From: Escherichia coli
Lineage (GTDB): Bacteria > Pseudomonadota > Gammaproteobacteria > Enterobacterales > Enterobacteriaceae
Reading direction: 5' to 3' (one strand)
Length of the DNA: 64,000 nucleotides
Assembly: GCF_003790525.1 (NCBI RefSeq)
Contig: NZ_CP033635.1
Shown piece by piece: positions 48,581 through 51,045 of the stretch (the first letter of the stretch is position 1; every line of letters starts with the position of its first letter). The notes below the pieces were generated by a model. That model worked only from the letters and a program-made list of their open reading frames with translations. It did no database searches and had not been told where the DNA came from. Position numbers and translations under genes: made by a program.

Positions 48581-48810
48581 GAAACATAGTGATGTTTTTT
48601 GACAATGTGTTAGCTCTTTATCAATAGGCCGCACGGTTGTTTGGTGGCGTCAAAATCGCCGAGGCGTTCCCTGAAGGCCGGGGCAGCCCACATGGATGTG
48701 GGCTGAGGGCGCGTTTTACAGGGATAATGAGATGGACGCTCCAGATTTTACGGTATCAAAGTACCAGACTGGATCGTTGCAATACGTCCTGAAAAATTAG
48801 GAGCGTCCAC

Positions 48811-49836
48811 ATGAAAGTATCAACTCTTGGTATCGACCTGGCAAAGAACGTTTTTCAGCTTCATGGTGTCGATCATGAAGGCCATACTATTTTGCGTAAA
48901 AAGCTCACCCGGGCTAAGTTTGTTCAGTTTGTGATTCAACTGGAACCTTGTCTGATTGGCATGGAAGCCTGCTCATCCAGTCATTATTTTGCGCGATTAT
49001 TCACCCGCTATGGTCATGAGGTAAAACTCATACCTCCGCAGTATGTGAAGCCTTATGTGAAAACGAACAAGACGGATGCAACAGATGCTGAAGCAATCTG
49101 CGAAGCGGTAACACGTCCGAATATGCGTTTTGTTCAGATAAAAACCGAAGAGCAGCAGGCCGTTTTAGCGTTACACACTGAACGGGGAATACTTATCCGT
49201 GAGCGGATTGCCTGTGCCAATAGTTTAAGAGCCACACTTGCTGAGTTTGGTATTACGATTGCGGCCGGACAAAACCATTTAACCCGTGAGCTGCCAGCCA
49301 TTCTGGAGGATGGCGAAAATGGTTTATCTCCCTTTGTCAGAACCAGCATCTACAGACAGTCTAAACATATCCGGGAACTTGAAGAACAAGTTAAACAGGT
49401 AGAAGAAGCTCTGGCCTCCTGGTATAGAACGCAGGAAGCCTGCCAGAGAATGGCCAAGATCCCGGGGGTTGGCATGCTAACGGCCACTTATGTGGTAGCA
49501 GCAGTGGGTAATGCCCGACAATTCAGTACCGCAAAGCAGTTCGCTTCATGGCTGGGGCTGACACCAAAGGAACATTCCAGCGGCGGGAAACAGCAACTGG
49601 GAGGGATCAGCAAACGTGGAGATGGATATTTCCGATACCTGCTGGTTCACGGCGCACGCGCACTTACCGCCAGGGTCAACCGAAACGGCGCGGTTGAGAA
49701 GAATTCCTGGCTTCAGGGACTCCTTGAGCGGAAGCACTACAATGTAGCTGTTGTCGCCATGGCGGCAAAAACAGCGAGGATCATGTGGTCAATGTTGTCA
49801 CACAATACTGAATATCAACCTCGGCAGCTCGCCTGA
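48811..49836 (+). CDS. IS110-family transposase/recombinase (DEDD RuvC-like domain plus C-terminal Tnp domain)
   Basis: ORF track 341 aa; N-terminal GIDLAKN motif, downstream acidic residues, C-terminal GLTPKEHSSGGK...GISKRGD region typical of the IS110 family; AGGAG SD 8 nt upstream. Confidence 0.85.
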   Translation: MKVSTLGIDLAKNVFQLHGVDHEGHTILRKKLTRAKFVQFVIQLEPCLIGMEACSSSHYFARLFTRYGHEVKLIPPQYVKPYVKTNKTDATDAEAICEAVTRPNMRFVQIKTEEQQAVLALHTERGILIRERIACANSLRATLAEFGITIAAGQNHLTRELPAILEDGENGLSPFVRTSIYRQSKHIRELEEQVKQVEEALASWYRTQEACQRMAKIPGVGMLTATYVVAAVGNARQFSTAKQFASWLGLTPKEHSSGGKQQLGGISKRGDGYFRYLLVHGARALTARVNRNGAVEKNSWLQGLLERKHYNVAVVAMAAKTARIMWSMLSHNTEYQPRQLA

Positions 49837-49884
49837 CACAAGGTCAGTCAATCTGACGAGGTGCTGAAAAAAAGTTAACGTCCT

Positions 49885-50059
49885 GGTAGGTGCAGGTGAC
49901 TTCAGAAGATGGCAAAACAGGTAAGACCGCAGGCAGGATACACCGAGAGGTAACAAGGGCAAGTTAGCCCGTAGAGGATGATTGGTACCTGCCTGGCGGA
50001 TTTCATCATGGTTCGGGATAAAAATCCCATCAGAAACCGGATATATGGCTGCACCTACC
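49885..50059 (+). ncRNA. candidate structured ncRNA in the IS 3' non-coding end (bridge/seek-RNA-like)
   Basis: nested long-range complementarity: GGTAGGTGCAGG (49885-49896) pairs with CTGCACCTACC (50049-50059); CCGCAGGCAGG (49923-49933) pairs with CCTGCCTGGCGG (49989-50000); no ORF; size about 175 nt. Confidence 0.4.
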
Positions 50060-50311
50060 CGTTTTATTACATAACTGAAGAAAGCATTGCATTCCGGGAG
50101 CGTCCATATATGTTACCTCGCGCCCGACCCGGTAGCCGCAAGGGATAAGCCGAGGGTACCGCGCAGCGGCGATTTTGTTCGCCAGAGCCCGGGGGGCAGG
50201 GGGCGGCGGCGATTGGCCGCCCCCTGCGCGCTCCTTGCGTCAGTGGCAATATGTGGCTTAGCTCATGAAAGGAGCGCAACAAGATGATGAATCAACATAT
50301 AACAACATTTT

Positions 50312-50340
50312 AAAAAAAGCCTGACATTGCGCCAGGCCTT
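50312..50340 (-). terminator. rho-independent terminator of aqpZ
   Basis: on the minus strand aaggcctggcgcaatgtcaggcttttttt: stem plus U-run immediately 3' of the aqpZ stop. Confidence 0.65.
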
Positions 50341-50349
50341 CTGCGTTAA

Positions 50350-51045
50350 TTAATTACGCTTTTCCAGCAGGGTCCGGTAAATCAGACCACCGATAATACC
50401 GCCGACAATTGGCACCACCCAGAAGAACCACAGTTGTTCTAACGCCCAGCCGCCCTGGAAGATAGCAACCGCGGTGCTGCGCGCCGGGTTAACAGAAGTG
50501 TTAGTCACCGGAATACTGATTAAGTGAATCAGGGTTAAGGCCAGACCAATAGCTATCGGCGCAAAACCTGCCGGAGCGAATTTGTCGGTTGCGCCGTGGA
50601 TCACTAACAGGAAGCCCGCACTCAATACCAGTTCAACTACCAGCGCGGAAAGCATGGAATAACCGCCTGGCGAATGCTCGCCATAACCGTTAGAAGCAAA
50701 ACCGCTGGCTGCCGCGTCAAAACCTGTTTTACCACTGGCAATTAAATACAGCAGCGCCGCCGCAACAATACCGCCGACAACCTGGGCAATTACGTAGCCA
50801 ACGACTTCTTTTGCCGGGAAACGTCCGCCAGCCCATAAACCAATAGTGACCGCCGGGTTAAAATGACCACCAGAAATATGACCAACAGCAAAGGCCATCG
50901 TCAGAACGGTCAGACCGAATGCAAGCGCCACGCCGGCAAAACCAATGCCTAATTCCGGGAAGCCTGCGGCCAGTACGGCACTACCACAGCCACCAAAAAC
51001 AAGCCAGAAAGTACCAAAACATTCAGCTGCTAATTTTCTGAACAT
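50350..51045 (-). CDS. aqpZ: aquaporin Z
   Basis: ORF 50350..51051 trimmed to the ATG at 51045 ([13 protein letters not shown]); two NPA motifs (HFNPAV and NPAR). Confidence 0.95.

Follow-up and report, generated by a model that had tools for sequence, protein, structure and literature searches.

ISEc81 within inverted TRIP1 repeats at the ends of a 1.4-Mb chromosomal inversion in Escherichia coli SMS-3-5

Introduction

Replichore-symmetric inversions between inverted repeats include that between rrnD and rrnE in Escherichia coli W3110 and the IS- or prophage-mediated inversions of Shigella, Yersinia and O157. The inversion of the strain SMS-3-5, which is treated here, is like the rrnD/rrnE type in that inverted repeats would have been exchanged homologously across the replichores, with the strand bias and the replichore balance largely kept, and is unlike it in that the repeats appear to have been made when a site-specific IS inserted into two repeats already present as a pair.

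The inversion itself is of a textbook type and has already been published for SMS-3-5 (PMC10888264; PMC5372343, Table S8), so that the finding alone adds little and the present contribution is a modest refinement. Li et al. (2024; Genes 15:236, PMC10888264) reported it as a TRIP1a/TRIP1c inversion, the two repeats forming an inverted pair of about 270 bp each with 94% identity, and found junctions of this kind 137 times in 6,725 genomes. The genes at the junctions agree with those described below (aqpZ-yohI and ybjE-yohG junctions); TRIP1 alone is credited in that work and an IS inside TRIP1 is never mentioned, whereas here ISEc81 was found at the dusC-aqpZ junction in 84 of the 85 inverted complete genomes, and a sixth TRIP1-like locus, yegH-asmA, is added. 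In the available parts of Wang et al. (2017; BMC Genomics 18:268, PMC5372343), SMS-3-5 forms a separate scaffold group, E. coli inversions are tied to inverted-repeat pairs, and Table S8 contains, as pair 'E', 1,606-bp repeats encoding the transposase WP_000868863.1, under which accession RefSeq lists the transposase of the lysO-yohP copy of the IS in SMS-3-5; the link from this pair to the SMS-3-5 inversion is made by the protein accession alone. The same parts of that paper differ from the present analysis in leaving the IS unnamed and TRIP1 unmentioned, and in addressing neither target specificity nor the distribution among genomes nor the position of the crossover.

The element was compared with ISEc11 and other IS1111-type elements using seekRNAs (Siddiquee et al., 2024, PMC11187229) and with IS621 and its bridge RNA (Durrant et al., 2024, PMC11208160). 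ISEc81 shares with this group the DEDD recombinase with a Transposase_20 domain, the long downstream non-coding region, the subterminal inverted repeats of 11 bp inside extensions of 7 and 3 bp, insertion at a single site that is not duplicated, a predicted promoter spanning the joined ends and, as a prediction, a guide loop with the top-strand match 5' of the bottom-strand match. It differs in its target, the centre of TRIP1, and its transposase is approximately 32-44% identical to those of the other IS in the identity matrix of PMC11187229. In that paper ISEc81 figures as a supplement sequence only, the supplements hold its protein sequence alone and not its target sequence, and here too the element is known from sequence alone. 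Dispersed extragenic repeats also serve as landing sites for IS621 in REP (Choi et al., 2003), ISPpu9 in the REP of P. putida (PMC12288879) and IS1397 in BIMEs, and ISEc81 resembles these in that an intergenic repeat yields predictable and sometimes inverted copies. Unlike their repeats, TRIP1 is present in one to five copies per genome, not hundreds, and two of these bracket the terminus in inverted orientation, so that a specific megabase inversion may follow when they are occupied.

Gene Order and the Reciprocal Junctions

The window is a stretch of 64,000 nucleotides from E. coli (contig NZ_CP033635.1), whose positions 48581-50350 are 100% identical to 2313554-2315323, reverse strand, of E. 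coli SMS-3-5 (NC_010498.1). An IS of 1,386 bp (48725-50110) links dusC with aqpZ in SMS-3-5. According to the RefSeq annotation of that genome, the genes on the left of the IS, yejG...galS-mglBAC-preAT-yeiS-sanA-cdd-yohKJ-dusC, follow the K-12 order in descending direction, while those on the right, aqpZ-ybjD-ybjX-macAB-cspD-clpSA, follow it in ascending direction. The gene dusC, for tRNA dihydrouridine(16) synthase (47633-48580, plus strand; assigned by the annotation of the identical SMS-3-5 stretch, K-12 position and alignment), is the final gene of the block colinear with 2.23-2.28 Mb of K-12, and aqpZ, for aquaporin Z (50350-51045, minus strand; annotation and K-12 position), opens the block colinear with 0.915-0.925 Mb. 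Within the window, no tRNA adjoining an integrase was found downstream of clpA.

Measured in K-12, dusC lies at 2,229,438-2,230,385 and aqpZ at 915,352-916,047, and the sites equivalent to the insertion, 915,110 and 2,229,293, are spaced by 1,314,183 bp with a midpoint of 1,572,201; the dif site occupies 1,590,750-1,590,777. The original prediction, drawn from the letters of the window, had placed an IS110-family element at a synteny breakpoint between blocks colinear with K-12 in descending and then ascending order, and had given a distance of 1.3 Mb and a midpoint of 1.57 Mb; the annotation and the measured coordinates agree with it on all of these points.

The reciprocal junction which it had also anticipated is present in the same genome, 1.40 Mb away, in the order lysO (908857-909756), IS110 transposase gene (910096-911121, opposite strand), yohP and mdtQ, with the second IS copy inverted. 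The inverted segment of 1.40 Mb contains dif, flipped, at 1,656,736, and its gene order is reversed, with all the sampled genes in the flipped state. The arms flanking dif, of 747 and 658 kb, bear out the expected rough symmetry about the terminus, and the replichore imbalance of SMS-3-5 is 29 kb in the inverted state versus 206 kb if un-inverted, the inverted state being the better balanced. The same repeat stands inverted at both ends of the segment, with the flanks exchanged reciprocally, as recombination between inverted repeats would leave them. The two units of SMS-3-5, each made of IS and TRIP1, align over 1,660 bp with 98.4% identity, and the ISEc81 copies in them differ at just 8 sites. 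Thus, the dusC-aqpZ junction is confirmed as the product of an inversion with an IS at its end.

The TRIP1 Repeat as the Insertion Site

Both flanks of the IS align to precisely those K-12 intervals that are defined in PMC10888264 as TRIP1c (2229122-2229394) and TRIP1a (915016-915281), copies of the TRIP1 repeat (Rudd, 1999; Li et al., 2024) which K-12 carries inverted relative to each other. The left half of the repeat (48624-48724, plus strand), of the TRIP1c or dusC-side type, was aligned to the K-12 dusC-yohP spacer and stops at the IS target ...TTTTACAGGGA^, and its sequence also occurs in the lysO-aqpZ spacer of K-12. The right half (50111-50280, plus strand), which is of the TRIP1a or aqpZ-side type at its distal end, was aligned to the K-12 lysO-aqpZ spacer and opens with ^TGTTACCTCGCGCCC. 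These assignments of the two flanks are those foreseen by the original prediction. What could not be seen from the letters alone is that TRIP1, a single repeat which K-12 has at both loci, accounts for most of the sequence on either side of the IS. Besides the diagnostic SNPs, the locus-specific flank amounts to approximately 43 bp beside dusC and 70 bp beside aqpZ.

Inside this repeat of approximately 270 bp, ISEc81 occupies the single exact site ACAGGGA^TGTTACC, and the same site and orientation are found in TRIP1a, in TRIP1c and in the divergent TRIP1-like copy between yegH and asmA. A full-length ISEc81 copy was flanked by TRIP1 in 173 of the 175 genomes having one.

Structure of ISEc81 and its Predicted Guide RNA

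The transposase identifies the element as ISEc81, of the IS1111 type within the IS110 family: at the protein level, the open reading frame in the window is identical at 341/341 amino acids to the ISEc81 transposase in supplementary file 6 of PMC11187229, and it matches the NCBIfam model NF033542 with E=3e-108 and 362 bits (cutoff 140). The limits 48725-50110 (plus strand, 1,386 bp) were set by the empty sites in K-12 and the strain KFu014, which also reveal an insertion without target duplication; the ends are movable by up to 1 nt, the bases AT being common to both junctions. The limits 48732-50107 implied earlier were slightly too narrow. A repeat search found the left subterminal inverted repeat ATGGACGCTCC (48732-48742, plus strand) and the right one GGAGCGTCCAT (50097-50107, plus strand) to be complementary at 11/11 positions, the former preceded by the extension TAATGAG and the latter followed by ATA. 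These ends thus carry the 7-bp and 3-bp terminal extensions beyond the inverted repeats that characterise the IS1111 family (PMC11187229).

The transposase gene (48811-49836, plus strand, 341 aa) encodes an N-terminal DEDD/RuvC-like domain (Pfam PF01548, residues 6-146, E=7e-15) and a C-terminal Transposase_20 domain (PF02371, residues 211-291, E=2e-24). Of the non-coding parts, the downstream one (49837-50110, plus strand) has 274 nt versus 86 nt upstream (48725-48810), in line with the IS1111-type rule that the non-coding region follows the transposase gene (PMC11187229), and it is the predicted source of a seekRNA or bridge RNA by this rule and by its RNA fold (z = -2.9). If abutted, the ends of ISEc81 would read TTGCAT-16 nt-TATAAT, a predicted circularisation promoter with the -35 half in the right end, and a circle with an end-joining promoter is accordingly predicted; abutted right-end/left-end junctions were found in none of the 179 ISEc81-bearing genome assemblies.

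The targeting of ISEc81 is probably RNA-guided. Both candidate target matches fall in one internal loop, the in-silico target-binding loop (49944-49980, plus strand), which is capped by the hairpin GGGC-AAGUUA-GCCC. On its 5' side, this predicted loop has CGAGAGGUAACA (49944-49955), complementary to the top-strand TGTTACCTCGCG that directly adjoins the insertion point on the right, with a 9-nt exact match, or 11/12 when extended, and its short 3' side of 5 nt, GGAUG (49976-49980), equals the top strand GGA^TG across the insertion point. In the IS1111-type seekRNAs a top-strand match likewise comes first and a bottom-strand match second (PMC11187229), the order of the predicted ISEc81 loop. A permissive Rfam scan of 48400-50500 gave zero matches, placing neither the non-coding region of the IS nor TRIP1 in a curated RNA family. 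A k-mer search of the non-coding region for donor-end guides yielded just one 8-mer, AUAUAUGG (50041-50048), complementary to the right end of ISEc81, and several 6-mers at the chance level, and a donor-binding loop is not claimed.

Distribution among Complete Genomes

The survey covered 5,426 complete E. coli genomes with long-flank queries, which superseded the short-flank counts of 173 and 92 genomes, ambiguous through the TRIP1 sequence common to the loci. The dusC-aqpZ junction was found in 85 of these genomes and ISEc81 stood at it in 84. The exception is KFu014, where dusC-aqpZ is a precise empty site with flanks 100% identical to SMS-3-5 and the IS is retained at the other junction, an arrangement that fits a later precise excision. 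The lysO-yohP junctions contained the IS in all 45 cases among the matches listed, KFu014 included, and an inversion with the IS missing from both junctions occurred in none of the 5,426 genomes. Of the genomes sampled along the match ranking, the large majority had the normal order and no IS at either locus, and five genomes, CE10 among them, have the IS at both native loci without inversion. With flank identities of 99.4-100%, the 85 inverted genomes appear to be a few related lineages, in which case only a handful of independent events would underlie the association of 84/85; four or five further lineages have the IS at both sites and are not inverted.

Crossover Mapping and the Comparison of CE10 with IAI39

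The un-inverted CE10, with both sites occupied, preserves the pre-inversion state in a close relative, and its two loci served as stand-ins for the parental haplotypes in the mapping of the exchange, the IS copies being mosaic across lineages. In the SNP table against these loci, the window junction is of the dusC-locus type through 49719 and of the aqpZ-locus type from 50240, with no informative site between, and the lysO-yohP junction of SMS-3-5 has the reciprocal pattern. The flank exchange interval of the SMS-3-5 lineage, 49720-50239, thus takes in the IS right end, the exact right-end junction and, from the right half of TRIP1, 129 bp in which the two loci do not differ, and three quarters of it is IS sequence.

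The flanks of the un-inverted CE10 and the inverted IAI39 are the same, with 0 differences in 3.1 kb, and the dusC-aqpZ junction of IAI39 is exactly the dusC-locus copy of CE10 on the left and its aqpZ-locus sequence on the right. IAI39 matches CE10, yet SMS-3-5 differs from both at 13 sites, and therefore at least two exchange events have occurred at this repeat pair. Lineage-specific alleles common to both copies in a genome, at 48715 and 48721 (CE10 versus SMS-3-5) and at 49887 (MRY15-117), indicate that gene conversion has linked the two loci. In MRY15-117, which was examined for a separate crossover within the element, the copies are mosaic and did not place one. Since the inversion state differs between the near-identical CE10 and IAI39, and dif in the inverted SMS-3-5 lies almost exactly opposite oriC, the locus would be a convenient natural system, in which inversion rates and the selection for replichore balance could be measured.

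Mechanism of the Inversion

The inversion is likely to have arisen by homologous recombination between inverted units composed of ISEc81 and TRIP1. TRIP1a (lysO-aqpZ) and TRIP1c (dusC-yohP) would have flanked the terminus, inverted and approximately 1.3 Mb apart, as they do in every E. coli of normal order, and ISEc81 would have entered both copies in an ancestor of these strains, which we take to belong to phylogroup F, a state still kept by CE10. The occupation of both sites would have turned short repeats of 94% identity into inverted repeats of 1.66 kb and 98-99% identity, between which ordinary homologous recombination may have flipped the 1.4-Mb segment holding dif and tus, the exchange being carried out presumably by the RecA-dependent host system. 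The window would then be one recombinant junction, with the left half of TRIP1c, ISEc81 and the right half of TRIP1a. The two IS copies stand at these loci because ISEc81 targets the pre-existing inverted pair TRIP1a/TRIP1c, and therefore the recombining unit is the IS together with TRIP1, about 1.66 kb. The original suggestion of recombination between inverted IS copies gains from CE10, whose un-inverted chromosome with both IS is the expected substrate; since the exchange interval spans IS and TRIP1, the part 'between IS copies' is likely and not strictly proven. Because the interval contains TRIP1 sequence as well as the right-end junction of the IS, the event in SMS-3-5 may instead have been either a TRIP1 crossover or a site-specific exchange involving the end of the IS.

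The first of these, in which TRIP1a and TRIP1c recombined alone and ISEc81 was a passenger arriving before or after, is the published account (PMC10888264) and could draw on the inverted, 94%-identical pair itself and on the 129 bp of difference-free TRIP1 right half within the interval; it is nevertheless improbable. Most of the 5,426 genomes have TRIP1a and TRIP1c free of IS, and not one inverted genome lacks ISEc81 at both junctions, while the sole IS-free junction, that of KFu014, has its partner occupied and is better read as an excision. The IS also makes up the larger part of the exchange interval. Repeats of only 270 bp and 94% identity would also recombine far less readily through RecA, given the barrier that mismatch repair sets against diverged sequences, than would repeats of 1.66 kb and 98-99% identity. 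It was probably the IS rather than TRIP1 that supplied the decisive homology. The causal refinement is that the TRIP1 repeats seem to invert only once ISEc81, itself probably RNA-guided, occupies both copies; through such a targeted IS, short repeats that have diverged can come to recombine effectively and yield one particular megabase rearrangement.

Somewhat less probable again, and quite unlikely, is an inversion by the ISEc81 recombinase, joining the left-end junction of one copy to the right-end junction of the inverted copy. This would be the excision reaction performed across copies, after which dusC-aqpZ would have a hybrid TRIP1 with no IS and lysO-yohP two IS in tandem; one of the tandem copies would later be excised and re-inserted at the empty site. 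The exact junction of the IS right end with its target indeed lies in the exchange interval, the junctions of SMS-3-5 and IAI39 each hold a whole parental IS at the sites where the CE10 copies differ, and KFu014, with dusC-aqpZ empty and the IS at lysO-yohP, has an intermediate-like layout; engineered recombinases of the related bridge systems are reported to produce megabase inversions. Such a route takes three steps versus one for homologous recombination, no tandem pair of abutted right and left ends was present in the 179 ISEc81-bearing genomes, the copies at the MRY15-117 junctions do not correspond to whole parental ones when set against CE10, and precise excision is the simpler account of KFu014. 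The shared alleles and mosaic copies favour homologous exchange between the loci. There is an equally slight chance that the TRIP1a/TRIP1c flip is a recurrent, reversible switch operated by the RNA-guided recombinase of ISEc81 on the end junctions of its inverted copies; if so, it would be a natural counterpart of the engineered megabase inversions, and the orientation kept in each lineage would be that of the best balance of the replication arms.

An assembly mis-join across the repeated IS in a chromosome really colinear with K-12 has next to no probability and is excluded here: although the breakpoint falls within a 1.4-1.7 kb repeat that the genome carries twice, a classic cause of such errors, 85 complete genomes, assembled independently by many laboratories and on many platforms, share the same junction, the reciprocal junction is likewise widespread, KFu014 joins dusC to aqpZ even with the IS absent there, the 8 differences between the IS copies segregate consistently with the flanks, and dif and all the sampled genes inside the segment stand in the flipped order.

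Inversion junctions in the SMS-3-5 genome

The segment 48581-50350 corresponds, with 100% identity, to NC_010498.1 2313554-2315323 (reverse strand) of the E. coli SMS-3-5 chromosome, and the RefSeq gene order across the junction is yejG ... galS, mglBAC, preAT, yeiS, sanA, cdd, yohKJ, dusC, IS110-family transposase, aqpZ, ybjD, ybjX, macAB, cspD, clpSA. In K-12 MG1655, dusC is located at 2,229,438-2,230,385 with yohP and mdtQ coming next, and aqpZ at 915,352-916,047 with lysO preceding. Thus, the synteny break at the insertion sequence, the orientations of both blocks and their 1.3-Mb separation in K-12 are real and now measured. 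As had been expected, alignment placed the left flank in the spacer between dusC and yohP of K-12 and the right flank in that between lysO and aqpZ, and the same ~270-bp repeat was revealed in both spacers in opposite chromosomal orientation, split by the IS at a single point (...GCGTTTTACAGGGA^TGTTACCTCGCGCCC...). This repeat is known in the literature as TRIP1, with the K-12 copies TRIP1a at 915016-915281 and TRIP1c at 2229122-2229394 (PMC10888264); therefore, the junction consists of the TRIP1c left half (48624-48724), the IS, identified as ISEc81 (48725-50110), and the TRIP1a right half (50111-~50280).

The anticipated reciprocal junction with a second, inverted IS copy was found in the same genome as lysO (908857-909756), an IS110-family transposase (910096-911121, on the strand opposite to the window copy), yohP and mdtQ, followed by the genes that K-12 has from 2.229 Mb on in descending order. 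The two copies are 1.40 Mb apart, the sampled genes between them follow the reversed K-12 order, and dif (1,656,736-1,656,763; 1,590,750 in K-12) is flipped. The two IS-plus-TRIP1 units share 98.4% identity over 1,660 bp, with 8 differences within the IS.

The SMS-3-5 inversion is already known, since the same event between TRIP1a and TRIP1c was described by Li et al. 2024 (PMC10888264), with 137 TRIP1a/1c junctions in 6,725 genomes. Wang et al. 2017 (PMC5372343) placed SMS-3-5 in a separate scaffold group and listed (Table S8) a 1,606-bp inverted-repeat pair encoding the transposase WP_000868863.1, the protein of the SMS-3-5 lysO-yohP junction. However, Li et al. never mention an IS, which is found here at the junctions, and three other papers include ISEc81 only in lists of mobile elements. 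What is added here is the IS identity and type, its TRIP1 specificity, the finding that inversion and IS almost always occur together, the sister state without inversion and the crossover interval.

Anatomy and predicted guide RNA of ISEc81

The 341-aa ORF of the IS matches the NCBIfam 'IS110 family RNA-guided transposase', contains the Pfam domains DEDD_Tnp_IS110 and Transposase_20, and is identical (341/341 aa) to the ISEc81 protein that Siddiquee et al. 2024 give in their supplement. The element shows the anatomy of the IS1111 type (Siddiquee et al. 2024, PMC11187229): perfect 11-bp subterminal inverted repeats (48732-48742 and 50097-50107) with 7-bp and 3-bp terminal extensions outside them, a long non-coding region (274 nt) downstream of the transposase gene, and insertion without target duplication. 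Joining of the two ends would create a promoter that is strong by its sequence, TTGCAT-16 nt-TATAAT. In the non-coding region, for which Rfam has no family, CGAGAGGUAACA (49944-49955) shows complementarity to the top strand directly right of the insertion point (9 nt exact, 11/12 overall), and GGAUG (49976-49980) has the top-strand sequence that spans this point. Both segments lie opposite each other in one predicted internal loop, which ends in a short hairpin, in the same order as reported for IS1111-type seekRNAs, and are predicted to be the guide.

Beside the target site, 48715 and 48721, which lie in the TRIP1 left half at distances of 10 and 4 nt from the site of insertion, are T and G at both loci in SMS-3-5 vs C and A at both loci in CE10, an un-inverted strain, and IAI39, an inverted one, which is a concerted change; with the CE10-type flank ACAAGGA^TG, the predicted GGAUG guide would match over 6 nt (AGGAUG). 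In the IS left end, a 17-nt inverted repeat (48733-48749 / 48793-48809, 88% complementary) brings together the left subterminal repeat and AGGAG, the ribosome-binding site directly 5' of the transposase ATG, and could block translation of read-through transcripts.

Distribution of ISEc81 and of the inversion

The survey covered 5,426 complete E. coli genomes, and the arrangements at the two loci were queried with long unique flanks. ISEc81 was present in 179 of them, in 1-4 places per genome, and a full-length copy was flanked by TRIP1 in 173 of the 175 genomes having such a copy. In MS14385 (NZ_LR130555.1 1898023-1904408; here and below, locus positions count from the start of the extracted segment), ISEc81 occupies locus 2501-3886 between yegH and asmA, with the same target site and orientation. 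The TRIP1-like copy there is diverged (139 bp at 91% identity) and is missing from the list of five TRIP1 loci (a-e) in Li et al. 2024. In many genomes with a single copy the IS lies close to 1.9 Mb, perhaps at the same locus. TRIP1a at lysO-aqpZ is wholly absent in some lineages and partial in others (e.g. O157:H7 strains, coverage from query 3267; ZH193-like strains, from 3044); the repeat itself is thus gained or lost, in agreement with its variable copy number in Li et al.

The dusC-aqpZ junction was found in 85 genomes, 84 of them with the IS, and among the matches listed all lysO-yohP junctions (45/45) carry it; ~34 further genomes have this junction with an extra IS3-family element inside its ISEc81 copy. 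This element (in MRY15-117, NZ_AP017617.1 939792-943644, at locus 763-2020), of 1,258 bp with a 3-bp duplication, lies in the 5' end of ISEc81, where the annotated transposase start is truncated, and probably inactivates the copy. The native orders lysO-IS-aqpZ and dusC-IS-yohP occur in 8 and 10 genomes, respectively, and 5 genomes, including CE10, have the IS in both native loci and are not inverted. Because the inverted genomes appear to represent a small number of related lineages, with flanks 99.4-100% identical, the association of inversion with the IS rests on few independent events.

The sole IS-free inverted junction belongs to KFu014 (NZ_CP091712.1 2925159-2930542, site at locus ~2645), a genome of the SMS-3-5 lineage whose dusC-aqpZ flanks are 100% identical to SMS-3-5. 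A perfectly restored hybrid TRIP1 with a precise empty site, together with ISEc81 retained at lysO-yohP, implies precise excision of the element in nature, most simply read as having followed the inversion.

Site and mechanism of the exchange

With the two un-inverted CE10 loci as parental stand-ins, the window copy is of dusC-locus type from its unique flank up to and including 49719 and of aqpZ-locus type from 50240, and the other SMS-3-5 junction has the reciprocal pattern. The stretch in between is devoid of informative sites; the crossover interval therefore comprises the 3'-terminal 117 bp of the transposase gene, the non-coding IS right end and 129 bp of TRIP1. The flanks of IAI39 and CE10 are identical (0 differences in 3.1 kb), the IAI39 junction is an exact recombinant of the two CE10 loci, and SMS-3-5 differs from both strains at 13 sites; hence, at least two exchanges occurred at this pair of loci. 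Lineage-specific alleles are common to both ISEc81-locus copies within one genome, a pattern that indicates gene conversion between the loci.

The best explanation is that ISEc81, guided to TRIP1, would have entered both inverted copies, providing longer and more homogeneous homology, and that host homologous recombination between the composite IS-plus-TRIP1 units would then have flipped the terminus region. The recombination between inverted IS copies proposed in the original prediction is upheld as to the inverted copies at both junctions, and the interval of exchange takes in TRIP1 as well as the IS right end. Exchange across the two copies by the ISEc81 recombinase itself remains an alternative that fits the crossover interval and the KFu014 layout, but it needs extra steps, and its tandem-copy footprint was found in none of the 179 ISEc81-bearing genomes. 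The published view, that the TRIP1 repeats alone made the inversion, is compatible with the mapped interval but weakened, because an inversion with both junctions IS-free was found in none of the 5,426 complete genomes, most of which have IS-free TRIP1a and TRIP1c. Mis-assembly at a repeat is excluded by the junction in 85 independent assemblies.

Replichore balance and adjacent features

The inversion is roughly symmetric about the terminus, as originally proposed, with arms around dif of 676 and 639 kb in K-12 terms. With oriC of SMS-3-5 between mnmG and mioC (~4,205,620), the observed replichores are 2,519,519 and 2,548,870 bp, and the computed undoing of the inversion places dif at 1,568,439 and gives 2,431,208 and 2,637,181 bp; the inverted form is thus better balanced in SMS-3-5 (imbalance of 29 kb vs 206 kb).

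Within the inverted segment, an ISVsa5 (IS4-like) element adjoins asr near the terminus (locus L014 31190-32398), and an IS3-family element interrupts ydeR close to dif (locus L015 22987-24215). For mdtQ, the annotation gives an intact gene in SMS-3-5 (locus 11930-13366), a pseudogene in K-12 (locus 1324-2759) and a gene with an internal stop in CE10 (locus 3565-4735). In the window, clpA is followed by a tyrosine recombinase/integrase gene (60996-62204, +), at the place that serW and infA have in K-12; no tRNA gene was found in 57000-64000, and the integrase gene probably marks the border of a genomic island.
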